Assembly (NCBI GenBank): GCA_045222195.1
Contig: JBGUXN010000003.1
Location: 27,311 to 91,310 of the forward strand
Direction: 5' to 3'
DNA: 64,000 bases
Source: Bacilli bacterium
GTDB lineage: Bacteria; Bacillota_I; Bacilli_A; RFN20; CAG-826
In this document: piece by piece, positions 7,649 through 21,250 of the stretch
How the letters are laid out: the number at the start of each line of letters is the position of its first letter
How positions within the stretch are numbered: position 1 is the first letter of the stretch
Position numbers and translations under genes: made by a program
The notes under the pieces: model-generated
Databases searched by the model: none
The model's input: only the letters and a program-made list of their open reading frames with translations
What the model was told of the DNA's origin: nothing

Positions 7649-8452
7649 ATGAAAAATAGATTCCTTACTTTATTAGTCATCTCAGCGATGTTATTGGTGG
7701 GCTGCAAAGGTGCGAAGATTAGTGAAGAAAAAGCTAATGAACTCGCTAAAAAGATTAATGAAAACACCGAAAGTCTCGGGGCGGCTTCCTTTGAAATGTC
7801 TGTCATCATGAAAGGTGCAGAAGGTAAAGGTTCCGAAAAAGAAGAAAGCAACATGACTTATACCCTCACCCAAGACAAAGAGGAAAACATAAAATTTAAA
7901 GCCAAGGGTAATGAAGGTGAAGAAAAATTTGACTTTGTTATTTATGTCGTCAAAAACGAAACATATGACACTGTCGCTTATATCAAAGAATATGACATGG
8001 AAACCAAACAATATAGTGAACATGTCTACACTAAAGCTACAGATTTAGATTATAGTGATAAAACTTCTCCATATACCAAGTTAGCGTTAGTTCCTGTTTT
8101 CTTTGTTGGAGGTTTTGCTGATCCAGTCACCTTAATGGAAAGCGATGACTTCAAAGCGGGCGAAGAAGTTGATGATGAAATTACATATAAAACAGAAGTT
8201 AACTATTATTCCGCTGGAGAAAAGAACTTAACCATTGAATCAGTAAGAAAAGCGGTCTCTGGAGTTCCAGAAGATAAAGAAACCACTACTGATATGAAAT
8301 ACACCATTACTTACGATAATCTTCTTTTCAAAAACGCGGTTATCACAGGTAAATCAAACTATGGTAATAAGACAGAAATGAAAACTAAATTAGATATGAA
8401 AAAATTGACCGTTGAATTACCAAGTGGTTGGGAAAAGTTAATTAGTAAATAA
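7649..8452 (+). CDS. lipoprotein, unknown function
   Basis: Lipobox 'MLLVGC'. AAGGAG RBS. Confidence 0.6.
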   Translation: MKNRFLTLLVISAMLLVGCKGAKISEEKANELAKKINENTESLGAASFEMSVIMKGAEGKGSEKEESNMTYTLTQDKEENIKFKAKGNEGEEKFDFVIYVVKNETYDTVAYIKEYDMETKQYSEHVYTKATDLDYSDKTSPYTKLALVPVFFVGGFADPVTLMESDDFKAGEEVDDEITYKTEVNYYSAGEKNLTIESVRKAVSGVPEDKETTTDMKYTITYDNLLFKNAVITGKSNYGNKTEMKTKLDMKKLTVELPSGWEKLISK

Positions 8453-9373
8453 TTATTTATTTAAAAAGTCTTTAATTACTTTTTGATAGCGGGGTTTGTC
8501 CACGAGATAGGACATCCCATGATTAGCACCAGGGAAGAGTTCATATTGAATCTTATCCGGGTGCTTTTTATATAGGTCTTCACTGATGTGATGAGGCACT
8601 ACTTGATCAGAATCACCATGAATAATCAATATTGGATGATTAGTGTGACTAACTGATTCATAAGCAGAACCTTTATTCATGTTCGTATGAGCAAATACAA
8701 TCGAAGAAAGATTTAAGATTGGATAAAAGAACTTAACTGATAAGTTAATGCCTTTAATCGTCTCTTTTAGCATGATACTAGGGTCACTAAACGGGCAATC
8801 AGCGATGATCTTAACATCACCTTCTACCTTATCCGCACACATTAAGACAGTCGCTCCACCCATCGATATTCCGATTAAGACAATTTTGATGTTTTGACCA
8901 AATCTTTCACGAGCGTATTCCACCCATTTTAAAACGTCTTTAGTTTCTCTAATACCAAAGGTGATGGAATGACCTTCACTTTTGCCATGCGCTCTTTCAT
9001 CGATAAGAATAACGTTATAGCCAAGATGGAGTACTTCAGTCGCGCCGCCACTAAAATCACGATAAGCAGTCCCGCGATAACCATGACATAATATCGCTAC
9101 CGTGTCTGATTTTTGATCATATAACCTAGCGTGTAACTTCAATTTATCAAAAGAAGTAATATAAACATCTTCATAGGGAACTTTTCTAATACCTTCAATT
9201 AAAGGGATCACTTCGTCGCGATGCCCTTCATATAATGGCGCGCCTAAATTAAAGTCATCTGATTGGCCTTTCTTTGGGGAATAAAAAGTATATAGATATA
9301 ATCCTAATAAAATGAAAAAGAAGAGGATCAAAAGACCACCAAATATGGAACCGATAATAATAGCGACAATCAT
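8453..9373 (-). CDS. membrane-anchored alpha/beta hydrolase
   Basis: N-terminal TM helix. Nucleophile elbow 'GISMGG', 'HGDSD', 'ANHG'. Confidence 0.75.
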   Translation of the reverse strand: MIVAIIIGSIFGGLLILFFFILLGLYLYTFYSPKKGQSDDFNLGAPLYEGHRDEVIPLIEGIRKVPYEDVYITSFDKLKLHARLYDQKSDTVAILCHGYRGTAYRDFSGGATEVLHLGYNVILIDERAHGKSEGHSITFGIRETKDVLKWVEYARERFGQNIKIVLIGISMGGATVLMCADKVEGDVKIIADCPFSDPSIMLKETIKGINLSVKFFYPILNLSSIVFAHTNMNKGSAYESVSHTNHPILIIHGDSDQVVPHHISEDLYKKHPDKIQYELFPGANHGMSYLVDKPRYQKVIKDFLNK

Positions 9374-9432
9374 GCTATTATTTTAGCAAATTTATAAAGT
9401 AACAAAAAATAAAATATTTTTTCGAAATAGTA

Positions 9433-9535
9433 TTGACATAGTTTAAAAAAAGAATAATATATAGAGTTCCTAATCAGGAATACCTCGTGTCCTGGGCATG
9501 ACGTTAAAAGGCACTAGAAAAGAGAGGTATTCGGA
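9433..9535 (+). promoter_or_regulatory. promoter plus structured 5' leader that can sequester the RBS
   Basis: TTGACA (9433-9438)-16-TAATAT. GAAUACCUC (9478-9486) is perfectly complementary to GAGGUAUUC (9524-9532), which contains the SD. A competing hairpin UUCCU/AGGAA lies at 9467-9480. Confidence 0.35.
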
Positions 9536-9757
9536 ATGAATAGGTACACACTAGAAGCAGTTGTTGACGGAGAGTACATTAAATTCGATCGTCTCTTCAA
9601 AAGTAGAGATGAAGCAATCGATTACATCTTCCGTTATTATGAAGACCACAATATATTGAATATTGAAGTCAACGATGAATATTGCGTTGATAACAATAAG
9701 CACGACATTGCTTACGTCTATAATTACTATAACCGCTTCAGAATTGCCAGAGCGTAA
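9536..9757 (+). CDS. small hypothetical protein (73 aa)
   Basis: ORF with a GAGAGG RBS, its own promoter and a terminator. No recognisable domain. Confidence 0.45.
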   Translation: MNRYTLEAVVDGEYIKFDRLFKSRDEAIDYIFRYYEDHNILNIEVNDEYCVDNNKHDIAYVYNYYNRFRIARA

Positions 9758-9771
9758 TTCTATCAATAATG

Positions 9772-9803
9772 AAAAAGGGCCAACAGTTTAAGTTGGCCTT
9801 TTT
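9772..9803. terminator. bidirectional intrinsic terminator
   Basis: A5-GGCCAAC-7 nt-GUUGGCC-U5, between the convergent genes 9536-9757 (+) and 9819-10610 (-). Confidence 0.75.
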
Positions 9804-9818
9804 AGTTCTTTAATACAA

Positions 9819-10610
9819 TTAACCAAGCGCTATATCAAGCACCATCATGAGCACAAAGCCCACCGCTAAACCGATGGTGGCTAAGTTAGAGTGACTACCT
9901 TCATTAGCTTCTGGTATGAGTTCTTCAACGACGACGTAGATCATGACGCCCGCAGCGAACGCGAGTACGAATGGTAAGATTGTTGACACGAATACGGTAA
10001 CTAAGATAGCAATAACCGCGGCAATTGGTTCCACTACACCAGAAATAAAGCCGTACAAGAACGCTCTTCCTTTTGATAAGCCTTCTTCTTTTAAAGGCAT
10101 GGAAACAATTGCGCCTTCTGGGAAGTTTTGTATGGCCATACCTATAGCTAAGGCTAACATGGCATTGCCATTAACATCTGAACCACTATTTTTAGCGACG
10201 ATATAACTAGCGATAACAACACCAACCGCTAAACCTTCAGGAACATTATGAAGAGTGACGGCTAACATCATCTTAAATGTTCTAGATAATTCTCTTTTAG
10301 AAACACCTTCTTCTTGCTTATTGATGTGCATGTGAGGCACTAAATAGTCAAGAAGTAACATAAATCCGACACCTAAGATAAAACCAATCGCCGGATATAA
10401 CCACATTCTAAAGTCGCCTTTAGTGTAGGTATTAATAGCGGGTTGAAGTAAAGACCAAATAGAAGCCGCAATCATGACACCAGAGGCAAAGCCTAATAAG
10501 ATCTTTTGTAATTTAGGATTGATTTCTTTTCTTAAAAAGAAAACCATCGCACTACCTAAGGTTGTGCCCACTAATGGAATAAATAAACAAATAATTACTA
10601 AAGGAGTCAT
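9819..10610 (-). CDS. ZIP-family divalent metal transporter
   Basis: 263 aa, polytopic. 'HNVPEGLAVG' and 'QNFPEGA' signature helices. Confidence 0.8.
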   Translation of the reverse strand: MTPLVIICLFIPLVGTTLGSAMVFFLRKEINPKLQKILLGFASGVMIAASIWSLLQPAINTYTKGDFRMWLYPAIGFILGVGFMLLLDYLVPHMHINKQEEGVSKRELSRTFKMMLAVTLHNVPEGLAVGVVIASYIVAKNSGSDVNGNAMLALAIGMAIQNFPEGAIVSMPLKEEGLSKGRAFLYGFISGVVEPIAAVIAILVTVFVSTILPFVLAFAAGVMIYVVVEELIPEANEGSHSNLATIGLAVGFVLMMVLDIALG

Positions 10611-11443
10611 TATTCATCACCCTCCGCACGTTTATTATGGTCGAAGATTGGAGGATATAAGTTTTCTCCTTCTTCTAAATTCGCTAATTTACATATTGCT
10701 TCATGCGTTCTTTTCGCGAGATCAATTCTTTGCTCGGCTTCTGGAAGAGTTTCATCTTTATAAATTGGTTCACCAACGGTGACTGTAATTGCCGCATCTT
10801 GTTTAAAGATATGTTTTCTAATCCAAGATGGTTTTCTATAAGAAAAACCTAAAGGCAATATCGGCTTATTATAACGGCACGCTAAAGAGAAGGCACCTAA
10901 TTTAAATGGTCTAATATACGGATAATATTCCCACATGCTTCCTTCAGCGTATACATGAAGCCATCCATCGTTTTCTAAATGTTTTCCCACCGCTTCATTC
11001 ATAGCACGCATGCCCTCTTTATTGTCACTTGGAATAGGCACACCGTTGACAGCGCGCATCATTTTACCGTTTTCCCCTCTAATATTCATATCCCAAATAA
11101 GGACATATGGCTTATATGGTCTAAGAGCTTTCATATTAGCGATAAAATCCCATAAATGAACATGGTTAGAGATAGTAACCGCTCCATGTTTAAGTTGGTC
11201 TTTATAGTATTTAAGGTTCTTTCTACCTTTAACTTTTAAACCCATCATAAAGAAACAGAGAATTGGCCATACTAAGATATTAAGGACTACTCTAGTCCAG
11301 AACTTCGCTGTTCTTAACTTAAAAGAATTATCAAAGTATGGATAATCAGCATCAAACACTAAGCCATTATTCTTTTTAACAACTAGATAATGTTGATCTG
11401 TATATTCTGTATATGGGTACTTTGTACTGTGTGGGTGAAACAT
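10610..11443 (-). CDS. lysophospholipid (1-acyl-sn-glycerol-3-phosphate) acyltransferase family protein
   Basis: HX4D motif 'NHVHLWD' and 'YAEGS' motif III. Confidence 0.7.
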   Translation of the reverse strand: MFHPHSTKYPYTEYTDQHYLVVKKNNGLVFDADYPYFDNSFKLRTAKFWTRVVLNILVWPILCFFMMGLKVKGRKNLKYYKDQLKHGAVTISNHVHLWDFIANMKALRPYKPYVLIWDMNIRGENGKMMRAVNGVPIPSDNKEGMRAMNEAVGKHLENDGWLHVYAEGSMWEYYPYIRPFKLGAFSLACRYNKPILPLGFSYRKPSWIRKHIFKQDAAITVTVGEPIYKDETLPEAEQRIDLAKRTHEAICKLANLEEGENLYPPIFDHNKRAEGDE

Positions 11444-11476
11444 AGGATATGTTTAGATTATCACAAATAATAAAAC

Positions 11477-11503
11477 AAAAAAAGAAGCGGTAATTTCCGC
11501 TTC
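11477..11503 (-). terminator. intrinsic terminator of giant ncRNA copy A
   Basis: Minus strand: GAAGCGG-AAAUUA-CCGCUUC followed by U7. Confidence 0.8.
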
Positions 11504-12545
11504 CTTTCTTTGAACCGCGATATCCGAATCATACATTGCTGTAAGCGATATCGTAGTTAGGCTCCTTAGGCTGGTGATGCTTCTTGTTGTCGATGTGTTT
11601 TGAACTGAGTAGCGCATCGGTGGCCAGCTTTCTTAAGTCATTAGCTCAAGACTGTCATCCTTTTCGTCATGTCCGGTACCGGATTTATCTCTTCAAGCCT
11701 TAACGAGAGGTCCGGTGACTATTGCTAGTCAGGGAGGATTGTACCGAGAACCACAGAAGTGATTCGTTGCTAGAGCAACCAGTTGACTAAGGGGTTTTTA
11801 ATCCTTAGAGGCTCCCATGTCAGCTTAGAGGAGCTGGTTGACTGATCTAGTCTTAAGTTCTTTAGGCCGTTTCTTCGCGGAATTTCCTATCCTGGGTTCT
11901 TCCGTTATCATCGCACGTTAGGTTGAGTAATGCGATTTAGGCTTTTCCGTAGTGATTTGCACTACTGGATCTTTGTTTTCCCTCTTTGTCCTATGTCCGG
12001 CGGTGGAATTACGCTGTCAAACTCTAATTCAGCGACCACTGTAGCAGGGAGGTTTGCCGTTTAGATGTCCCGAAGGGCATCAAGCCTTGGTGGGGGTGAT
12101 CATTGACCAGGAGATTTAATCCTGGAACCTTACTATCAACGTCGTTTTAGCGGTGATCTGTGGTTAAGGCTGAGTTTTTACTTTAATTAGGTTCCCATTC
12201 GCTCACTGTGCCATTACTGACCAGTGGGTTTATTTCAGGTTTTGAGTTGCTTTAGCCTGAAGGTGGGTGTGGGACGGGTTATTAGCCTTCGTCATCCTCT
12301 TCGTCGTGTCGGGCGGTGGTTTTAAGCTGTCAAACTCTAATTCAGCTTCCACTCTAGGAGGGAGGATTTCGCCCTGATCGATGCAAGCACCGATCCGCCA
12401 GTACAATCATTAATCTGGTTTAAGATTTTGATCCCAGAAACGCGTTAGCAACTTACCTACCTGCGTTGATTGATTTACCTGGACTTGAGATACTAAGAAT
12501 CTATCAATTCTTAGTGTCTCACCCACTCGGTTTCCCCAGCGGGTT
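11477..12545 (-). ncRNA. giant structured ncRNA, copy A (~1.07 kb, family unassigned)
   Basis: No ORF on either strand. GC-richer than the flanks. Bounded by a promoter and a terminator on the minus strand. Many hairpins carry GCAA/UUCG/CUUG tetraloops in minus-strand sense. Helices covary with copy B. Confidence 0.8.
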
Positions 12546-12550
12546 AGTAT

Positions 12551-12579
12551 AGTATGCACTTATTTTATTTCTGCGTCAA
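12551..12579 (-). promoter_or_regulatory. sigma70-type promoter of ncRNA copy A
   Basis: Minus strand: TTGACG (12579-12574), 17-nt spacer, CATACT (12556-12551). Preceded by more than 100 bp of A/T tracts. Confidence 0.55.
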
Positions 12580-12816
12580 TACTTTTTTTTAAAAATTTTT
12601 TTATTTTTTTATAAAATGTATTTTAAATAATATTTTATATTATTTATTTTTTGATAATTTTTTATATAAATATTTAAAAATAGAGTTTTTTATACGCGTA
12701 TATGCGTGATAAATAGAGATTTTATTAATTTATTCTTCTTCGTTTTCTTTAACGGTTCTAATAACTTCTCAAATTGAACAGTCTTCGTGATGACAGTTAT
12801 GATGCTTTTTGAAGAC

Positions 12817-12843
12817 AAAAAAAGAAGCGGTCAATACCGCTTC
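12817..12843 (-). terminator. intrinsic terminator of giant ncRNA copy B
   Basis: Minus strand: GAAGCGG-UAUUGA-CCGCUUC followed by U7. Confidence 0.8.
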
Positions 12844-13865
12844 CTTCTTTGAACCGTGATACCCGAATCATGCATTGCTGCAAGCGGTATCCAAGTTAAG
12901 TTCCTTTGGCTGGTGATGCTTCTTTCTTGGTAAGGCGTTTTGAATTAGTTAGCGTCTTACTGGCCAGCTTCCTCAAGTTATTAGCTTTGAGGCTGTTTCC
13001 CTCTTCGTCTTGACCGGTGCCGGATTTACTCTGTCAAACTTTAACACAGATGCCGGTGACTATTGCTAGTCAGGTGGGGTCGTACCGATATCATCATTAC
13101 TGATGATCTTTGCTAGTGCAACCAGTTAACGATGGCTCTTTAATCCTTCGAGGCTCCCATACTAATTTAGAGGAGGCGGTTGACTTATCTAGTCTTAAGT
13201 TCTTTAGGCCGTTTCTTGGCGGGATTTCCATGCTGGGTTCTCCCGTTATCTCCACACGTTAGGTTGAGTAATGTGGATTAGGCTTTGCGGTTAAGTTTTC
13301 TTTAACTCGCTTTTGTTTTTCCCTCTTTGTCCTATGTCCGGCGGAAGTCTTACGCTGTAAAACTCTAATTCAGCGGCTTCTGTAACAGGGAGGTTTGCCG
13401 TTTAGATGCCCTTGCGGGCATCAAGCCTTAGTGATCATTGGCTGGGAGCTTTAATCCCAGGTCCTTACTATCAACGTCGTTTTAGCGGTGATCTTTTGGT
13501 TAAGGCTAAGTTTTCGCCCATTCATCAGGAGTGCCATTACTGACCTTCTGACTTATTCCAGGTTTTGAGTTGCTTTAGCCTGGATGTGGGGAGTGGATGG
13601 GTAATTGACCTTCATCATCCTCTTCGATCTTGTCGGGCGGTGGTTTTAAGCTGTCAAACTCTAATTCAGCATCCACTGGAGCAGGGAGGACTCGCCCTTG
13701 AGTGATTGCTCACTCTGCCAGTACAATGATTGATCTGAGCTTTTTCTTTGATCTCAGAAGGCGCTTTAGCAACTTACATACCTGCGCTCATTGTTTTACC
13801 TGGTCTTGAGATACTAAGAATCTATCAATTCTTAGTCTCTCACTCACCTCGTTCCCGGGGTGGGT
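12817..13865 (-). ncRNA. giant structured ncRNA, copy B (~1.05 kb, paralogue of copy A)
   Basis: Collinear with copy A end to end. Same promoter and terminator architecture. Substitutions relative to A are largely compensatory within helices. Confidence 0.8.
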
Positions 13866-13871
13866 TTCTAT

Positions 13872-13901
13872 AGTATGCCACAAATAAATAATTTAATGCA
13901 A
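13872..13901 (-). promoter_or_regulatory. sigma70-type promoter of ncRNA copy B
   Basis: Minus strand: TTGCAT (13901-13896), 18-nt spacer, CATACT (13877-13872). Preceded by A/T tracts. Confidence 0.55.
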
Positions 13902-14070
13902 GCACTTTTTTAAATTTTTTTTAATTTTTTTATAAATTACTATTTTAAATAACTTTGTTATTTACATTTTTAAAAAATTTTTTAAATAAATAAAAATAAT
14001 TGTTTTTTAATGAAAAAATAATGCTTTTTTATGCATATATACGTGAATTGTTTAAATTAAATATTTTTAT

Positions 14071-14092
14071 AAGAAAACGCGCCTGGGCGCGC
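14071..14092 (-). terminator. intrinsic terminator of the two-component operon
   Basis: Minus strand: GC-only stem CGCGC/GCGCG followed by UUUUCUU, directly after the kinase stop codon. Confidence 0.6.
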
Positions 14093-14101
14093 TCTCAAAT
14101 C

Positions 14102-15397
14102 TTAAATAATAATTGTAAATATAATGCGGTTATCTTTGACTATAGCAGATATCTTTCCTTTATGAAGTTCCACTATTTCTTTAGCGATGCTTAAGCCAAT
14201 ACCAGATCCTTCTTTTTTATTAGTACTTGGACTACGATAGAATCTTTCAAACAATAAATTAGTGTCTATTTGATGGTTTTCTACGACATCGTTATAAAAG
14301 ACAATAGTCACCTTTTTATTATTTCTACTGACTCTCACACCGACTTCACCATTTGGTTTGGTGTATTTTAAAGCATTATCTAAGAAGACATAGAATAATT
14401 CATTAATTAAGTATCTATTACCAGTCATACCGATATTTTCTTCGATATTCTTCGCAAACTCATAATTGTTCTTTTGATATGTTGGTAAGAATGCTTCAAT
14501 ACACTCATTAGCGAGCTTACTAAGTGAGAAGTCCTCAAATGGGTAATTCTTTAAATCATTTTCGTCAAGTCTAGAAAGGATGACTAATTGATTGGTCATC
14601 GATGTTAAACGATTGACTTGATCATGGATGGATTCTGTCCATTCGTTTTTACCATTATCCATTTCAATAATTTCTAAGTCTGTATTGATAATAGTTAAAG
14701 GTGTTTTTAATTCATGAGAAGCATTAGTAATAAAGGCTTTTTGCTTACGATATGATTCTTCATTTGTTTTAAAAACGAAGAAAGAGGCTATCACGATGAG
14801 GCCCGCCACTACAGCGTAACCAATCGCGGAAATACTGACTGATGATTTAACAAAATCATAATAATTGGTCATTCTTTCATGTATATCAATGAAAGCAAGA
14901 TAAGTATTATTGTTTCTTTTGTCTCTAGAGTATCTAAAGTCTTTAGTAACACCACCTTTAGTGCCCTTATTATAGATTTCTGTAGCTAAAGCCTTACCCT
15001 CTTCTTCAGAAATAGAGAAGACGTGCATGAAATCGGAATAGTTAATATCACCATTTTCATCAAAGGACACAACGAAGTAATGTTCTCTCATTAACTTTTC
15101 ATAGTTTCCCATACCTGGCCAAGTCCAACCACCTTGTTGGCCACCTTGACCACCTTGACCTTGCCCACCTGGATTCATTGGATCATATGAATAAGAATAC
15201 GCTCCTGGGTCATAGGAATATGGTTCTGGGTCAGCATATAGCTTTTCTTGATCCACGACGAGAACAAGAGATTTTTTAGCATCGTTTTGAATACCAACAT
15301 AGTTATAGATATCAATAGAAGCAATGGCCGCGGTTAAAACCACTAAAACAGCGATTAAAGAAACTAGTATGAAACGCAACCTTAATCTTTTAATCAT
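14102..15397 (-). CDS. sensor histidine kinase (HisKA + HATPase_c)
   Basis: Two TM helices. H-box 'SHELKTPL', N-box 'LDNALKYT', G-box 'GSGIGLSI'. The extracytoplasmic loop is low-complexity and Y/G/Q-rich. Confidence 0.85.
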   Translation of the reverse strand: MIKRLRLRFILVSLIAVLVVLTAAIASIDIYNYVGIQNDAKKSLVLVVDQEKLYADPEPYSYDPGAYSYSYDPMNPGGQGQGGQGGQQGGWTWPGMGNYEKLMREHYFVVSFDENGDINYSDFMHVFSISEEEGKALATEIYNKGTKGGVTKDFRYSRDKRNNNTYLAFIDIHERMTNYYDFVKSSVSISAIGYAVVAGLIVIASFFVFKTNEESYRKQKAFITNASHELKTPLTIINTDLEIIEMDNGKNEWTESIHDQVNRLTSMTNQLVILSRLDENDLKNYPFEDFSLSKLANECIEAFLPTYQKNNYEFAKNIEENIGMTGNRYLINELFYVFLDNALKYTKPNGEVGVRVSRNNKKVTIVFYNDVVENHQIDTNLLFERFYRSPSTNKKEGSGIGLSIAKEIVELHKGKISAIVKDNRIIFTIII

Positions 15398-16071
15398 TTT
15401 TCTTGCTCCAAATAATATCCTTGATAACGGATAGATTTAATTTTGACTTTAGAAGATACTTGAGAAATCTTTTTTCTTAAATAAGAAACAAACACCCAAA
15501 CATTCTCACTTGTGGAATATGAATCAATATCCCAAGCGGATCTACTAATAGCGTCTAAAGAGGCGATACTACCTTGTTTATTCATTAAAAGAACCATGAT
15601 TTGTAATTCTTTATTCATTAAAGAGACTTTCTTATCACCACTTGATAAGGTCGCAGTATTAACATCTAATGATAAATCACCAAAGGTGAGGATATCTTCT
15701 TTCTTATAAGATGGTTTTCTTCTAAGTAAGGCGCGAATTCTCGCTAAGAGTTCTTCCGTATTAAATGGTTTCGCTAAATAATCGTCAGCGCCTAAATCAA
15801 GACCATTAATCTTATCTTCCACGGTGGATTTCGCGGTTAACATGATGACAGGCGTCTCTATTTTCTTTTCTCTCATGATCTTTAAAACTTCAAAACCACT
15901 CAGCTTAGGCATCATGACATCTAAGACGATAATGTCGTATTGATATTGTTCAATAAAGATTAAGGCTTCTTCTCCATCATAAGCGGAGTCCACTACGAAA
16001 GAGTTTCTCTTTAAGATTGTACTAAGAGCTTTATTAAGTTGTTGGGAATCTTCAACTAAGAGGAGTTTCAT
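15394..16071 (-). CDS. OmpR-family response regulator
   Basis: 'LLVEDS', 'VLDVMMP', 'LTAK' receiver motifs plus a winged-helix C-terminus. 4-nt overlap with the kinase gene. Confidence 0.9.
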   Translation of the reverse strand: MKLLLVEDSQQLNKALSTILKRNSFVVDSAYDGEEALIFIEQYQYDIIVLDVMMPKLSGFEVLKIMREKKIETPVIMLTAKSTVEDKINGLDLGADDYLAKPFNTEELLARIRALLRRKPSYKKEDILTFGDLSLDVNTATLSSGDKKVSLMNKELQIMVLLMNKQGSIASLDAISRSAWDIDSYSTSENVWVFVSYLRKKISQVSSKVKIKSIRYQGYYLEQEK

Positions 16072-16112
16072 ACCTTAAATTTAATTTAATGAACCTTAAA
16101 CAAACTTTAGAA
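16072..16112. promoter_or_regulatory. direct-repeat element, copy 2, filling the cls/response-regulator intergenic gap
   Basis: ACCTTAAA at 16072-16079 and 16093-16100 (21-bp spacing). TTAATTTAATGAACCTTAAACA (16081-16102) matches 7510-7530. Confidence 0.4.
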
Positions 16113-17702
16113 CAACGCGGAAATAATCTTTAATAAGGAAGTAATAGCCCTAATTGGACCTCTTAATCTAAAGTTAGAAGGTACTTCTTCACTGACTTCC
16201 ACCATTTGTTTGAAGTCATCTTCAATTTCTTTCATGCACTCGCACTTATATAAAATTGTGCCGCATTCAAAGTGATGGACTAAACTTCTAAAGTCAAAGT
16301 TAATGGTACCGACAAACGCGAGTTCCCCATCCGCAATAGCGGATTTCATATGGTTAAAGCCTGGTTTATAAATATGAATATGTACGCCAGCATCAAGAAG
16401 GAATCTAAAGTTAGATTTCGCCATTGAATACACTAATTTCTTATCAGGAATACCAGGGACGATTAAATGGACATCCACTCCTCTTAAAGCGGCATTTCTT
16501 AAAGCGTCAAGAAGACCATAAGTAGGCACTAAATATGGCGTGGAGATGTAACATGATTTAGTGGCGTAATTCAAAATATTAATATATGTTTGTTCGCCCA
16601 CTAAAGCGTAGTCGATATCACCAGGACCATCACCAAATGGCATGACGAATCCTGAATCTTCAAATTTAGGATATTCATAATTGATGAATTTATCGTAATT
16701 AGAAATATGACCGACCGCTAAGTTTAAGTTTTGTAAGAAAGTCATAATGAGATTATTAATGGCACTACCTTCGATTTTAACCATGGTATCTTTCCAATAG
16801 CCAAATCTCACTATTTCATTCGCGTATTCATCAGCGAGATTGATACCACCGGTAAAAGCCATTTTATGGTCAACGACCACAATCTTTCTATGATCTCTAT
16901 TGTTATAAACACCAGAAAGAATTGGTCTAAATGGATGGAACTTATAGCATTTAATGCCAAACTTTCTTAATCTTCTTGGGGTAAAAGAAGAGATTGTGCC
17001 ACCACAACCCATATCATCATAAACAATACGGACATCAACACCCGCTTGGGCTTTTTCTTTTAAGATTTCTTGAACAGCAGACCATTCCTTACCATCACTA
17101 ATGATAAAGAATTCAATGAAGATAAATTTTTCGGCTTGTTTTAAACCTTCTAACAAAGCGGGAAAGAATTCTTCGCCGCATTTATAGTAAGTAACTCTGT
17201 TATTCGTATGGATACCCATCTTTGTGGTGTTATGAATATAGTTAAATGTGCCTAAGGCTTCTCCTAATTCTTTTTCATATTTCTTTTGTTCGTTTTTGCT
17301 TAATTCAAAGTGTTCATCACACGCCTTATTAAAAGCGGCCATGATCTTTTTATCTTTCTTTCTTAAACCATGGTTACCAAAGATTAAGAAAATAACGGAG
17401 GTGAATAAAGGCAAAAGAAGCATACCCACGATCCAAGGAATCTTAAATTCTGGATCTTCTGGTTTGTTAACAATTCTAAAGAAGATGAAGAAAGCAACGA
17501 TAAAGGCCACGATTCTTAAGCCCATATAGGCGAAAACAATAATCGCGGATATTTGTTCATTGGTGATATTTTCACTACCGATAATCGCCGTTAAAATATC
17601 ATCTAAAAAGAATTGAATAACAACGATAATAGCGAGTTCTAAAAGAAGAAGTAATATGACTAGGAAATATCCAGATAATAAATTTCTAATAAACTTTTTC
17701 AT
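16107..17702 (-). CDS. cls: cardiolipin synthase
   Basis: 531 aa. N-terminal TM helices and two PLD HKD motifs ('HRKIVVVD', 'HMKSAIAD'). Confidence 0.85.
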   Translation of the reverse strand: MKKFIRNLLSGYFLVILLLLLELAIIVVIQFFLDDILTAIIGSENITNEQISAIIVFAYMGLRIVAFIVAFFIFFRIVNKPEDPEFKIPWIVGMLLLPLFTSVIFLIFGNHGLRKKDKKIMAAFNKACDEHFELSKNEQKKYEKELGEALGTFNYIHNTTKMGIHTNNRVTYYKCGEEFFPALLEGLKQAEKFIFIEFFIISDGKEWSAVQEILKEKAQAGVDVRIVYDDMGCGGTISSFTPRRLRKFGIKCYKFHPFRPILSGVYNNRDHRKIVVVDHKMAFTGGINLADEYANEIVRFGYWKDTMVKIEGSAINNLIMTFLQNLNLAVGHISNYDKFINYEYPKFEDSGFVMPFGDGPGDIDYALVGEQTYINILNYATKSCYISTPYLVPTYGLLDALRNAALRGVDVHLIVPGIPDKKLVYSMAKSNFRFLLDAGVHIHIYKPGFNHMKSAIADGELAFVGTINFDFRSLVHHFECGTILYKCECMKEIEDDFKQMVEVSEEVPSNFRLRGPIRAITSLLKIISALF

Positions 17703-17715
17703 AATGATTCCTCCA

Positions 17716-19443
17716 TTATTTATATTGAGAAGAGTAAAGACTATAGTAGAAGCCTTGTTTATTCATTAATTCTTTATGATTACCAGTTTCCACGATTGCA
17801 CCATCTTTCATAACAATGATGATATCGGCTTTTTCAATCGTCGATAATCGATGCGCAATCACGATAGATGTCTTTTCTTTCATCATGTGATCAAAGGCAT
17901 CGGTAATTAATTTTTCACTACGCGTATCAATATTCGATGTCGCTTCATCTAAAATAACCATGTTTGGATTTAGTAACATCACTCTAGCTATAGCAATCAT
18001 CTGTCTTTGACCTTCAGATAAACCAGACTTATTAGATACTTTAGTTAAATACTTATCTGGTAATGTTTCAATGAAGATATCAGCGTGCGCTTTTCTAGCG
18101 GCCTTTATCGCCTCTTCTTCACTGGCATCTTGCTTATAATAACGAATGTTATCTAATATTGTTCCTGAATAAATCCAAGTGTCTTGAAGGACCATACCGA
18201 TATTGCTTCTTAAAGAAGCCTTATCGATTTCAAGGTATGATTTGTCGTTAATTAAGATTTCGCCGCTTAGAGGGTCGTAAAAACGCATTAAAAGGTTGAT
18301 TAATGTTGTTTTACCAGCGCCAGTAGGACCAACAATCGCGACTTTCTCACCTTTTTTGATTTTTAAGGAGAAATTCTCAATTAATTTTCTATTAATTTCA
18401 TAAGAGAAAGACATGTCTTTAAAGGTGATAGATTCAATGTCGTTGATTTTATCAACACCTTCATTAATATCGTTATTGATATTTAAGAAATCGTTAATTC
18501 TTCTAAAGGATGATTTAGCCGCTTCATATTCGTGAGCGACACCACTGATTTCATTAAATGGTTTAGTGTATTGATTAGTGTAACTTAAGAATGAAGAGAG
18601 TCTACCAATAGACATGACCGCAAATAAAGCGGCAAGTTTCGCATCATAGGCAAGCATGATAATACCCACTATACCAATGATAACGTAGATGGTATTATTC
18701 ACTAATCTTGTGCTTGGATTAACCCAAGAAGCGGAGAAGGATGCAACGACGCCTTCTTTCTTTAAGACTTCATTATCTTTATTGAAGGCTTCTAAAGAAG
18801 ATTCTTCATAGTTAAGAGATTGCACGATATCAATATTATTAAGTGTTTCTAAAGACACTGATGAGATACGTGCTTGTAATTCATTTTGTTTCTTATAGTG
18901 TTTACTTGAGAATCTAGACACAAATCTCGCCATTAACATCGATAACGGAGAAAGAACGATAACCCCTAAAGCGAGTATCCAGTTCACCATAAGCATCATG
19001 ATGATGGTAATAATGACAGTAAAGATACCTTGGATTAGTGTTTTAAATACAGCATATAGACCCGCAGCGTAGTTTTCCATATCTCTAATTTCGAGAAGTA
19101 ATAAGTCACCACGGTATTTATTATCAAAGTCCTTAAGAGCGATGTTATTGATCTTTTGATATATTTCATCTCTCGCTTTCTTAATGGCCTTTTGCGAGGA
19201 ATTCATCACTATGACTTCAAAGATATAGGCAGAGATAACGCCTAAGACCGCTAAACCTAAGGCGATAAAGACATAGATGTTAAATAGGTCTTGGTTATTA
19301 TCTTTAGAGGCATCAAGAGCTTTACCTAATAAGAATGGTTGAGAGATTTGCGCTATTACAAAGAGCAAAGCAAAGATCACCGCGATGATCAGCGCGCTTC
19401 TTAAAGGCTTGAGATATGTAAAAAGTCTTTGCTTCGCGGTCAT
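17716..19443 (-). CDS. ABC exporter, fused permease/ATPase (heterodimer partner 2)
   Basis: Six TM helices plus 'GPTGAGKTT', 'LSEGQRQ', 'ILDEATS'. I prefer the ATG at 19443 (MTAKQRL...), 1 nt after the upstream stop codon (19445-19447). The ORF track starts at 19539. Confidence 0.85.
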   Translation of the reverse strand: MTAKQRLFTYLKPLRSALIIAVIFALLFVIAQISQPFLLGKALDASKDNNQDLFNIYVFIALGLAVLGVISAYIFEVIVMNSSQKAIKKARDEIYQKINNIALKDFDNKYRGDLLLLEIRDMENYAAGLYAVFKTLIQGIFTVIITIIMMLMVNWILALGVIVLSPLSMLMARFVSRFSSKHYKKQNELQARISSVSLETLNNIDIVQSLNYEESSLEAFNKDNEVLKKEGVVASFSASWVNPSTRLVNNTIYVIIGIVGIIMLAYDAKLAALFAVMSIGRLSSFLSYTNQYTKPFNEISGVAHEYEAAKSSFRRINDFLNINNDINEGVDKINDIESITFKDMSFSYEINRKLIENFSLKIKKGEKVAIVGPTGAGKTTLINLLMRFYDPLSGEILINDKSYLEIDKASLRSNIGMVLQDTWIYSGTILDNIRYYKQDASEEEAIKAARKAHADIFIETLPDKYLTKVSNKSGLSEGQRQMIAIARVMLLNPNMVILDEATSNIDTRSEKLITDAFDHMMKEKTSIVIAHRLSTIEKADIIIVMKDGAIVETGNHKELMNKQGFYYSLYSSQYK

Positions 19444-19444
19444 A

Positions 19445-21250
19445 TTACTCCTTCTTAATTTGGGTTTGATAGATTTCTTGATAGATTGGGCAAGACTCAA
19501 GTAAGTCTTCATGTTTACCTTGTCCCACGACTTTGCCACCTTCTAATACGAGTATGTAATCAGCGTTTTGCACAGTGGCCACTCTTTGAGAGACGATAAC
19601 TTTAGTCATATCTTTAATAGATGAGACATAGTCTCTAATTTTTTTATCCGTTAAAAGGTCTAACGCACTTGTGGCGTCATCTAAGATTAATAATTCTGGA
19701 TTTCTCACTAAGGCGCGACCAATACAAAGTCTTTGTCTTTGACCACCAGAAAAGTTTAATCCACCTTCATTTACTTCGTGATTAATGGAATCTTCATATT
19801 TAGAAACAAATTCATATGCTTGGGCATTTTTTAATGCTTTAATGATGTCCTCGTCAGAGGCATTAGGATTGCTCATTAAGTAATTAGATTTAATTGTGCC
19901 TTTAAATAAAGATGACTTTTGATTAACTAAACCGATATCTTTTCTTAATAAAGCCATATCATATTCCCTTAATGGAATACCTTTATATAGGATGCTACCT
20001 TTAGAAACATCATAGAATCTTTCAATTAAGTTAATAACTGTGGATTTACCACTACCAGTACCACCGATAATCGCGAATGTTTCACCTTTTCTAATTTCAA
20101 AACATAGGTCATTTAAGAAATATCCGTCTTTAGATTCATCAAAGGAGAAATAGACATGATCAAACTTAATCACGGGTTCATTATCTTTAACTTCGTTTGA
20201 TTTAGGAGAATCGATATTAACAATAGATGGATTAAGTGTGAGTACACTATCAATACGCTTTCTAGAAACACTAGCTTTCACTATTTCAACAGCCACCATT
20301 GATAACTGTGTGACTACGAAGAATATTTGTGCTAGATATGACATCTCTGCGATCACTGTGGAAGCCACTAAAACGTTATTAGGGCCAAATAAGTCATTTT
20401 GTAAAAGAAGAATGATAACGATTAAAACAATTGATGTAATAGCGAATGTTAAAGGATTGATTAAAGCGTTCAATCCATTAACTTTAATGCTCTTATTTTG
20501 ATAAGACTCTGTTTTAGAAGAGAACTTAACGTATTCGCTTTCTTGATTATTAGAGGCTCTAACTACTCTTGCACCCTCAACAGTTTCACTAGTTTGATTA
20601 GAAATGTTATCTAATTCGGATTGAATATCAACATATCCTTTAGATGATTTTCTTAAGACTAAGAAGTTCACTAGTAAAATCATTGGTACAATCGCTAAGA
20701 AGGCTAAGCCCACTCTCCAATCAAGGATGAAGGAGATAATAAGTGAACCCACTAAGATGAATGGAGCGCGTACCACTAATCTAACGAAATATAAAACACC
20801 TAACTGTAATTGATAGGAATCACTGTTAATAATGGTCATTAGTTTAGCATTACTAATCTGCTCTCTTTCTTTTTTAGAGAGTTTTAAGATCTTTTCAAAT
20901 AAAGAACTTCTTACTTCTGTACCAACATTAACGGATGCTTTCGCCGCTAAATATTGGCTGACCATGGTAATAGCAAAACCAACAATACCCATTACTAAAA
21001 TGATGACACCACCAGTAATAGCGTCGCTTAGTCCAGTACCTGTTGGATTAATTAATCTAATAAAAGCCGCTAAAGAGGAGGATATAACATTAGGTATATC
21101 ACTAGGGGTGCTATATTGACTCAAATCAATAATGGCTTTCATGAATAGGGGTATTAATAAATCAAATATCGCTTCAATGATCTTTAAGAAAGGTCCTAAA
21201 GCAATAATGAGGATGTGATGTTTATATGATTCAGATACTTTACTTATCAT
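19445..21250 (-). CDS. ABC exporter, fused permease/ATPase (heterodimer partner 1)
   Basis: 'GGTGSGKST', 'FSGGQRQR', 'ILDDATSALD'. Confidence 0.85.
   Translation of the reverse strand: MISKVSESYKHHILIIALGPFLKIIEAIFDLLIPLFMKAIIDLSQYSTPSDIPNVISSSLAAFIRLINPTGTGLSDAITGGVIILVMGIVGFAITMVSQYLAAKASVNVGTEVRSSLFEKILKLSKKEREQISNAKLMTIINSDSYQLQLGVLYFVRLVVRAPFILVGSLIISFILDWRVGLAFLAIVPMILLVNFLVLRKSSKGYVDIQSELDNISNQTSETVEGARVVRASNNQESEYVKFSSKTESYQNKSIKVNGLNALINPLTFAITSIVLIVIILLLQNDLFGPNNVLVASTVIAEMSYLAQIFFVVTQLSMVAVEIVKASVSRKRIDSVLTLNPSIVNIDSPKSNEVKDNEPVIKFDHVYFSFDESKDGYFLNDLCFEIRKGETFAIIGGTGSGKSTVINLIERFYDVSKGSILYKGIPLREYDMALLRKDIGLVNQKSSLFKGTIKSNYLMSNPNASDEDIIKALKNAQAYEFVSKYEDSINHEVNEGGLNFSGGQRQRLCIGRALVRNPELLILDDATSALDLLTDKKIRDYVSSIKDMTKVIVSQRVATVQNADYILVLEGGKVVGQGKHEDLLESCPIYQEIYQTQIKKE

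Follow-up and report, generated by a model that had tools for sequence, protein, structure and literature searches.

A putative 1-kb noncoding RNA of Bacilli built from repeated pseudoknotted domains that each contain the cow-rumen-1 motif

Large, intricately folded bacterial RNAs are rare, and OLE, GOLLD, ROOL, HEARO, and raiA each led to new structural or biochemical principles. GOLLD and ROOL are commonly reported in a phage context. The sponge small RNAs (sRNAs) CsrB and RsmZ bind CsrA through GGA hairpins of ~10 nucleotides (nt) whose copy number varies between species. The large, ornate ROOL, GOLLD, and OLE RNAs form homo-oligomeric assemblies (Kretsch et al. 2025, PMC12286853; ROOL in PMC5737381), and the glycine riboswitch places two homologous aptamers in one transcript (review PMC9481103). 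Here we describe a locus in a 64,000-nt stretch of a Bacilli genome (contig JBGUXN010000003.1, positions 27,311 to 91,310; hereafter the window, to whose own numbering all coordinates refer), in which positions 11477–13866 of the minus strand very probably hold two tandem paralogous noncoding RNA (ncRNA) genes of ~1,050 nt each, composed of a leader, three homologous self-folding domains, and a terminator tail. Only a 61-nt piece of each domain, the cow-rumen-1 motif (RF02946), is catalogued in Rfam, and the whole looks like an unrecognized large structured RNA with a distinctive repeat-domain construction.

Like ROOL, GOLLD, and OLE, this is a very large, intricately folded, protein-free-looking ncRNA of Bacillota and rumen origin with many predicted pseudoknots and kissing loops, and it is as large as or larger than they are (1.05 kilobases [kb], with some forms reaching at least 2 kb). 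Unlike them, it has no prophage or phage context here, and it consists of internal tandem repeats of one domain in variable copy number, an arrangement not described for those three families. Duplicated homologous folded domains standing side by side in one transcript recall the glycine riboswitch, but tandem aptamers of that type lie in a 5′ untranslated region (5′-UTR), measure ~100 nt per domain, and are coupled to an expression platform, whereas the present domains measure ~300 nt and belong to a unit with its own terminator and no fixed downstream gene. CsrB and RsmZ likewise repeat one element many times in a single RNA; here, each repeat is a ~300-nt pseudoknotted domain. A scan of the window with ROOL, GOLLD, OLE, HEARO, raiA, and other Rfam large-RNA models gave no match at gathering score, and over 11300–14200 at E values up to 1, only two chance-level matches were seen.

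Two tandem units with six cow-rumen-1 cores

The gap at 11444–14101, free of open reading frames (ORFs), contains two direct repeats that are 79% identical over ~1,090 nt in pairwise alignment and that we term units A and B. Their GC content is 46%, compared with 34% for the whole window and 10 to 18% for the spacers around them, and no ORF of at least 60 amino acids (aa) lies within either. A small-ORF reading was considered and rejected: both units have AUG-led ORFs after core 1, but other species do not retain them. Each unit has one σ70-like promoter site and ends in one strong intrinsic terminator, a GAAGCGG/CCGCUUC hairpin followed by U7. The promoter-like site of unit A (12551–12579, minus strand; −35 TTGACG, 17-nt spacer, −10 CATACT) is a consensus match only, with the TTGAC and −10 region conserved in an alignment of 27 units, and transcription is predicted to start near 12544. 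Promoter and terminator positions together give a predicted transcript of ~1,068 nt for unit A (11477–12544, minus strand) and one of ~1,050 nt for unit B (12817–13866, minus strand). An earlier reading of the sequence alone, made from the letters and ORFs of the window, had placed a giant RNA unit at 11504–12545; unit A does lie there, but a boundary at 11504 cuts the terminator hairpin, and the transcript probably runs from ~12544 to ~11477. The spacers at 12560–12815 (between the units, 18% GC, housing the unit A promoter) and 13880–14070 (10% GC) contain repeated A/T tracts and house the promoters.

A covariance-model scan of the window identified six minus-strand cores, all matching RF02946 above the gathering threshold, with scores of 62.5 to 77.4 bits against a gathering score of 53.4 and each spanning the full model (1–61). 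The matches lie at 12296–12355, 11981–12042, and 11659–11718 in unit A and at 13619–13679, 13322–13383, and 13000–13059 in unit B. An extended-core profile hidden Markov model (HMM) gave longer matches of 85 to 88 nt at 12291–12376, 11977–12063, and 11654–11741 and at 13614–13700, 13318–13404, and 12995–13081, respectively, and a 25-base core pattern had four matches in the window and none in 100 shuffles. Successive cores are 313 and then 322 nt apart in unit A; in unit B, the corresponding distances are 296 and 323 nt. The sequence-only reading had listed six recurring cores, and both types of model find them where it had placed them; it had not recognized them as an existing Rfam family. 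The helices that it had described are present as well (GUGG/CCAC, CCGG/CCGG, AGCUG/CAGCU, CGCUG/CAGCG, CUCU/AGAG, and the CCUC/GAGG closure). The tetraloop and AUUAAA-loop hairpins that it had put after each core also exist, but in the RNA sense they lie 5′ of each core and come after it only in plus-strand coordinates.

RF02946, which we take to come from the motif set of Weinberg et al. 2017 (NAR 45:10811), is a 61-nt model of Rfam type "Gene; sRNA" with a rumen source habitat, as for the present RNA. Our literature search returned no paper naming cow-rumen-1 or describing this RNA, and the main text of Weinberg et al. 2017 is silent on the motif. The Rfam classification would fit three separate sRNAs or regulatory elements, each motif being its own gene and the three merely clustered, and pairwise BLAST indeed sees only short cores. 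We consider this very improbable: neither a promoter nor a minus-strand terminator was found between the cores in either unit, and the motif is always embedded at least three times in a conserved unit of at least 1.05 kb with a single terminator. Covarying helices spanning 130 to 220 nt tie the cores to distant segments, length and order are conserved throughout the 1,050 nt, and some short metagenome contigs cover a unit from end to end. What Rfam lists as a 61-nt small RNA is thus part of a 1.05-kb gene, which exceeds 2 kb in some organisms.

A repeated domain held by pseudoknots and long-range helices

Pairwise self-BLAST confines the similarity between modules to a core of 75 to 85 nt. Because pairwise blastn alone would wrongly refute a modular construction, nhmmer profile HMMs were built in 27 units from the ~110-nt element that precedes each core, leaving out the core itself. 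The module-1 profile found module 3 in all 27 units (best E value 1e-8) and module 2 in 25 (1e-7), the module-2 profile found module 1 in 21 of 27 (3e-11), and the module-3 profile found module 1 in 25 of 27 (5e-10), whereas leader and tail profiles matched only themselves. A covariance model built only from module-3 upstream elements found the module-1 elements at full length in essentially every unit with 30 to 57 bits (in the window, at 12376–12485 and 13704–13806), and the module-2 elements weakly (16 to 22 bits) but at exactly the right positions. The common upstream structure is paired in 93.5% of cells, compared with 25 to 43% when the partners are slid (91 hits, in an alignment fitted to the model). 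A pseudoknot in the core is also common to all three modules, as are two long-range pairings, termed R and K, with similar sequence themes. Because the R and K pairings recur in each domain, the whole ~300-nt period has one architecture present three times, including the receptor-bearing "linkers." The proposal of the sequence-only reading that each unit is an internal triplication of a ~315-nt module is supported by these core-free profiles and covariance models, and the shared structure beyond the core that it called for is evident in them and in the pseudoknot, R, and K pairings, though not in pairwise BLAST.

In unit A, all on the minus strand, a leader of ~65 nt (12483–12544) with two hairpins and no repeat elsewhere in the unit is followed by domain 1 (type 1, 12172–12482), domain 2 (type 2, 11855–12171), and domain 3 (type 3, 11559–11850). 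Domain 1 is composed of a three-way-junction arm (outer and inner helices, insert hairpin, and AUUAAA-loop hairpin), a tetraloop hairpin, a pseudoknotted core, and downstream hairpins with the R1 receptor. The other two share this layout, with a mini-hairpin enlarged to 6 base pairs (bp) with a GCAA loop in domain 3. The 3′ tail (11477–11558) carries a capping helix (AACU/GGUU) with an inner hairpin, then the terminator GAAGCGG/CCGCUUC (11484–11503) and U7. Unpaired nucleotides that are invariant in every domain are CCCU, UAA, C-GCCS-GACA-YGAYCGAA, AUUAAA, and CYAAUAAC. A contact between the AUUAAA and CYAAUAAC loops was considered; both are too conserved for covariation.

The core is predicted to be an H-type pseudoknot in which a CCUC/GAGG closing helix crosses a 4-bp helix formed with the linker. 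The RF02946 motif corresponds to the central hairpin and 3′ strand of this fold: the cores share the RF02946 hairpin and the conserved 3′ strand CCGCCGGACAcGAUCGAAGAGG, and the 4 nt that precede the conserved GACA (GCCC, GCCG, ACCG, GCCU, or ACCC) pair with an NGGN element (GGGC/U, CGGC/U, CGGU, AGGC/U, or GGGU) located 3 to 5 nt upstream of CCUC. Because a MAFFT alignment of all cores misaligned the linker and the 3′ end, anchor-based scripts were used to score the pseudoknot and closing helix. A full 4-bp complement occurs in 92% of 88 distinct cores and in 38% ± 5% (maximum 56%) of shuffled ones, and in the 27-unit alignment, the core 2 pseudoknot helix is 100% paired (CG 23, AU 2, GC 2). 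In unit A, the first extended core (12294–12374; Rfam match 12296–12355) closes with AUCCUC/GAGGAU (12362–12367 with 12294–12299) and has the pseudoknot GGGC (12371–12374)/GCCC (12311–12314). The second (11981–12059; Rfam match 11981–12042) closes with CCUC/GAGG (12049–12052 with 11981–11984) and pairs CGGC (12056–12059) with GCCG (11998–12001), and the third (11657–11746; Rfam match 11659–11718) closes with AUCCU/AGGAU (11735–11739 with 11657–11661) and pairs CGGU (11743–11746) with ACCG (11674–11677). The RF02946 model is consequently a fragment that lacks the 5′ strands CCUC and NGGN, which complete the closing helix and the pseudoknot, respectively, and the real gene is ~17 times longer and carries at least three such cores.

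The R and K helices were discovered by an all-against-all column scan of 56 nonredundant units. In each R helix, the conserved loop of the cow-rumen-1 hairpin pairs with a 6-nt receptor located 130 to 165 nt downstream, at the 3′ edge of its own domain. In unit A, R1 (12172–12337) joins the core-1 loop GAGUUU (12332–12337) to AAACUC (12172–12177) and is 100% paired (GC 15/AU 12 and UA 16/CG 10). R2 (11855–12024) joins the core-2 loop GAGUUU (12019–12024) to GAACUU (11855–11860; 98.8% paired; UA 13/CG 12), and R3 (11559–11700) joins the core-3 loop AGGCUU (11695–11700) to GAGCCU (11559–11564; 96.9% paired; UA 15/CG 12), with all four Watson–Crick pair types occurring at its first position. Many independent compensatory variants of the R helices are found across 87 units, with changes at up to five of the six positions; those of core 3 include AAGUUU/GAACUU, UAGUUU/GAACUA, CAGUUU/GAACUG, and GAGUUU/GAACUC. 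Full complementarity between a loop and its cognate receptor is seen in 95%, 93%, and 84% of units, compared with 24 to 69% for noncognate combinations.

The R pairing bears directly on the published consensus. The outer (4 bp) and inner (5 bp) stems of RF02946 are paired in 94 to 100% of cells and covary, whereas its innermost 3-bp stem (UAGA loop) is broken in type-3 cores by a C·U mismatch. Those innermost pairs (aGU/GCu) overlap the R-helix nucleotides at 12332–12347 and in the equivalent loops of the other five cores, and the predicted R pairing is much better supported, its covariation being much stronger. Because of this conflict, the RF02946 consensus structure probably needs revising. 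The covarying pseudoknots that lock each domain are missed and in part contradicted by the current family model, and Rfam gains a corrected and much larger family.

In the K helices, the insert-hairpin loop of the three-way-junction arm pairs with the loop of a downstream hairpin. K1 (12245–12453, minus strand) pairs AGUUGCU (12447–12453) with AGCAACU (12245–12251; 94.7% paired; AU 11/CG 11), and K3 (11603–11825, minus strand) pairs the insert loop AGCUGA (11820–11825) with the tail-hairpin loop UCAGUU (11603–11608; 97.5% paired; UA 13/CG 12); both covary strongly. By analogy with these two, GUUGA (12136–12140) and UCAAC (11922–11926) are a candidate for K2 (11922–12140, minus strand; 98.5% paired). 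A GUUGA/UCAAC theme is common to K1, K2, and K3, and of the six R and K helices, only the invariant K2 lacks compensatory changes.

RNAalifold folding of the 27-unit alignment produced 184 pairs, 118 of them with compensatory changes. Its pairings of core-1 CCUC with core-2 GAGG and of GUUGA with UCAGC were rejected as mispairings, pseudoknots not being representable by that program, and were replaced by local or tertiary pairings. The resulting 261-pair model, written with four bracket types to include pseudoknots, is paired in 90.8% of cells in the 27 units, compared with 30 to 43% when slid, and 160 of its 261 pairs show compensatory changes. All of the long-range pairs detected can be satisfied within one molecule. 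In unit B, on the minus strand, domain 1 (13508–13803; Rfam match 13619–13679) has R1 at 13656–13661 with 13508–13513 and K1 at 13768–13774 with 13568–13574, and domain 2 (13197–13507; Rfam match 13322–13383) has R2 at 13360–13365 with 13197–13202 and K2 at 13471–13475 with 13263–13267. Domain 3 (12898–13192; Rfam match 13000–13059) has R3 as AAGUUU (13036–13041) with GAACUU (12898–12903) and K3 as AAUUAG (13162–13167) with CUAAUU (12943–12948), and the tail and intrinsic terminator occupy 12817–12897 (GAAGCGG/CCGCUUC at 12824–12843, then U7). Compensatory changes distinguish unit A from unit B in more than 12 helices, R3 and K3 included, which indicates that both copies in the window are under selection for structure.

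Several points weigh against a single large RNA of homologous domains or against parts of its model. The linker parts of the domains are only marginally similar (best E value 0.025), and their equivalence comes from position and pairing role. The CCUC/GAGG closing helix is nearly invariant, with only flanking pairs covarying and those modestly; K2 is invariant, rests on analogy, and is in competition with a helix predicted by RNAalifold. Because several of the alignments contain related sequences or were fitted to a model (alignment A3), covariation counts are not counts of independent events. The transcript-like metagenome contigs described below could reflect assembly breaks, and no partner gene is linked to the RNA that would point to a specific protein or ligand. 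As to novelty, earlier remarks on clustered cow-rumen-1 motifs are possible, the supplement of Weinberg et al. 2017 having been outside the literature search.

Homologues and the number of domains

A core-pattern scan of one genome per GTDB species yielded 37 loci, all in metagenome-assembled genomes (MAGs) labelled Bacilli, Bacillales, or Erysipelotrichaceae, many with record names that mention rumen or ruminant samples. A metagenome scan added 116 loci, one of them a false hit, for ~150 homologous loci in total. The 27 complete units from rumen MAGs measure 1,044 to 1,099 nt and are 57 to 78% identical to unit A. In nearly every locus uncut by a contig end, the cores lie 290 to 345 nt apart on one strand, and the three position-specific core types are kept across all hosts. 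Typing with type-specific HMMs assigned 96 complete and 15 truncated units to the 1-2-3 form and 12 complete and 4 truncated units to the 1-2-1-2-3 form. One contig carries at least eight domains (2-1-2-1-2-1-2-3), and the orders 1-1-3, 1-1-2-3, and 1-1-1-2-3 turn up in a few loci. A single-domain version was looked for among the genome and metagenome loci, but none was convincing: every one-core locus is cut by contig ends.

The threefold periodicity seen in the window is thus retained in homologues, and the order of events put forward in the sequence-only reading, module duplication followed by whole-unit duplication, agrees with the census. The triplication is old because the position-specific module types are conserved across all homologues, and the whole-unit duplication came later because tandem units occur only in some genomes. 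The RNA thus very probably originated in tandem copying of a ~300-nt domain, an event older than the divergence of the known hosts. The forms with five and at least eight domains came afterward, when the 1-2 pair was duplicated, as did duplications of the whole gene like that in the window. The alternation of 311- and 307-nt spacings and near-identical scores in the contig with at least eight domains indicate a recent tandem duplication of the 1-2 pair. Because the gene consists of a complex domain repeated in tandem, in numbers that vary, it can serve as a test case for the evolution of large RNAs by domain duplication, and the ~150 homologues, with natural three- and five-domain versions, make it a well-defined target for structural biology. 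It also suggests that uncultured rumen Bacilli contain an abundant RNA that is still unexplained.

Multi-domain loci include L016:1249–2685 (minus strand), L018:2678–4142, L061 (an entire 2,072-nt contig), L080, and L131, and five-domain homologues (1-2-1-2-3) occur on contigs of ~1,580 to 1,690 nt. Two three-core loci, L099:2187–3137 and L102:399–1349, have a first spacing of 538 nt where ~310 is usual, as if ~230 nt had been inserted into domain 1. In loci typed 1-1-3 (L013:54–879, minus strand, L039, and L150), the second domain is type-1-like rather than type 2, and the first core of L013 has an enlarged mini-hairpin like that of type 3; evidently, one domain type can give way to another by replacement or conversion.

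Of 31 short contigs (at most 1,300 nt) with three cores, 25 begin 143 to 173 nt before core 1, and most of these short contigs end 91 to 166 nt after core 3, so that both boundaries fall near those predicted for the RNA. We infer that such unit-length metagenome contigs are assembled transcripts. Contigs L038, L043, L045, L046, L050, and ~20 others of 1,000 to 1,250 nt both start and stop within ~20 to 70 nt of the predicted RNA ends.

Domain number also bears on the overall shape of the RNA. The sequence-only reading had speculated about a covalently linked pseudo-trimer, that is, three domains of one chain closed around a pseudo-threefold axis as a single-chain counterpart of the ROOL, GOLLD, and OLE assemblies. 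Three domains are by far the commonest number (96 of ~120 complete units), the domains are equal in size and share the same fold elements, and other large bacterial RNAs are documented to assemble into homo-oligomers made of RNA alone (PMC12286853). A closed ring of C3 symmetry would not, however, tolerate the intact-looking forms with five and at least eight domains. The R receptors are all found at the 3′ edges of their own domains, beside the following domain or the tail cap; core 3 docks on the tail rather than on domain 1, and the column scan of 56 units revealed no covarying helix between domains 3 and 1. Because of the receptor placement and the domain numbers 3, 5, and at least 8, an open head-to-tail array fits better than a closed threefold particle, which we regard as quite improbable.

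Possible roles and genomic setting

Every domain displays the same invariant unpaired nucleotides, and for that reason we favor, tentatively, the possibility that the RNA acts in trans as a multivalent scaffold. The R and K pairings lock each domain, and the R receptor sits beside the first helix of the next. In an open, extendable head-to-tail array, one RNA may bind the same partner (a protein, small ligand, or RNA) three or more times.

The same architecture might instead serve an assembly of RNA alone, in which head-to-tail stacking, possibly with domain swapping through R and K, would produce a rod, filament, or cage without a partner. The R1 receptor (12172–12177) adjoins the outer helix of domain 2 (12166–12171) and the R3 receptor adjoins the tail helix, so that coaxial stacking is possible. 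The R loops of different domains are identical in some units and could swap, as the full complementarity of 24 to 69% of noncognate combinations would allow, and variable domain number together with the precedent of ROOL and GOLLD is compatible with this alternative. Intermolecular contacts cannot, however, be inferred from sequence, and the clear preference for cognate R pairs fits intramolecular folding; we therefore judge an RNA-only assembly rather unlikely. A related and possible, if doubtful, idea is that the RNA is a counterpart of repeat proteins: 3, 5, or at least 8 stacked ~300-nt domains would form an extendable RNA-only rod or superhelix with R helices coaxial with the next domain, possibly extended by intermolecular R/K swapping. 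If so, it would be among the largest bacterial ncRNAs after ribosomal RNA, with a building principle not described for ROOL, GOLLD, OLE, or other known large bacterial RNAs.

Gene neighborhoods were relevant to whether the RNA is instead a cis-acting leader, such as a riboswitch-like aptamer array, controlling a downstream gene. In one clade, an acyltransferase gene follows ~190 nt downstream on the same strand in 23 loci (10610–11443 in the window), with a ZIP transporter gene next in 17. Elsewhere, flanking genes differ or lie on the other strand, so that no gene context is fixed across the homologous loci. Every unit closes with a strong intrinsic terminator of its own, what follows unit B is unit A rather than a gene, and no alternative terminator/antiterminator pairing was seen. 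A leader function is thus highly implausible, and because neighbors are conserved only within one clade, the RNA appears to be a free-standing gene without a linked protein gene. Nor does it resemble a mobile or phage-borne element such as a group II intron, retron, or prophage ncRNA: two core patterns had zero matches in viral contigs, blastn against phage and plasmid collections gave no match, and the neighbors are housekeeping genes without an associated reverse transcriptase, transposase, or phage gene.

Farther from the units, a 267-aa ORF at 7649–8452 (plus strand) has no Pfam match at E values up to 1e-3. In close relatives (L001, L003, L009, L010, and L026), a conserved block of six genes (clusters c9-c6-c5-c3-c0-c1) precedes the RNA gene. 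In the window (8453–19539), only c9, c6, and c5, which include cardiolipin-synthase-like and two-component-system genes, precede the RNA genes, with c3-c0-c1 located further downstream, which looks like a local rearrangement beside the duplicated RNA genes.

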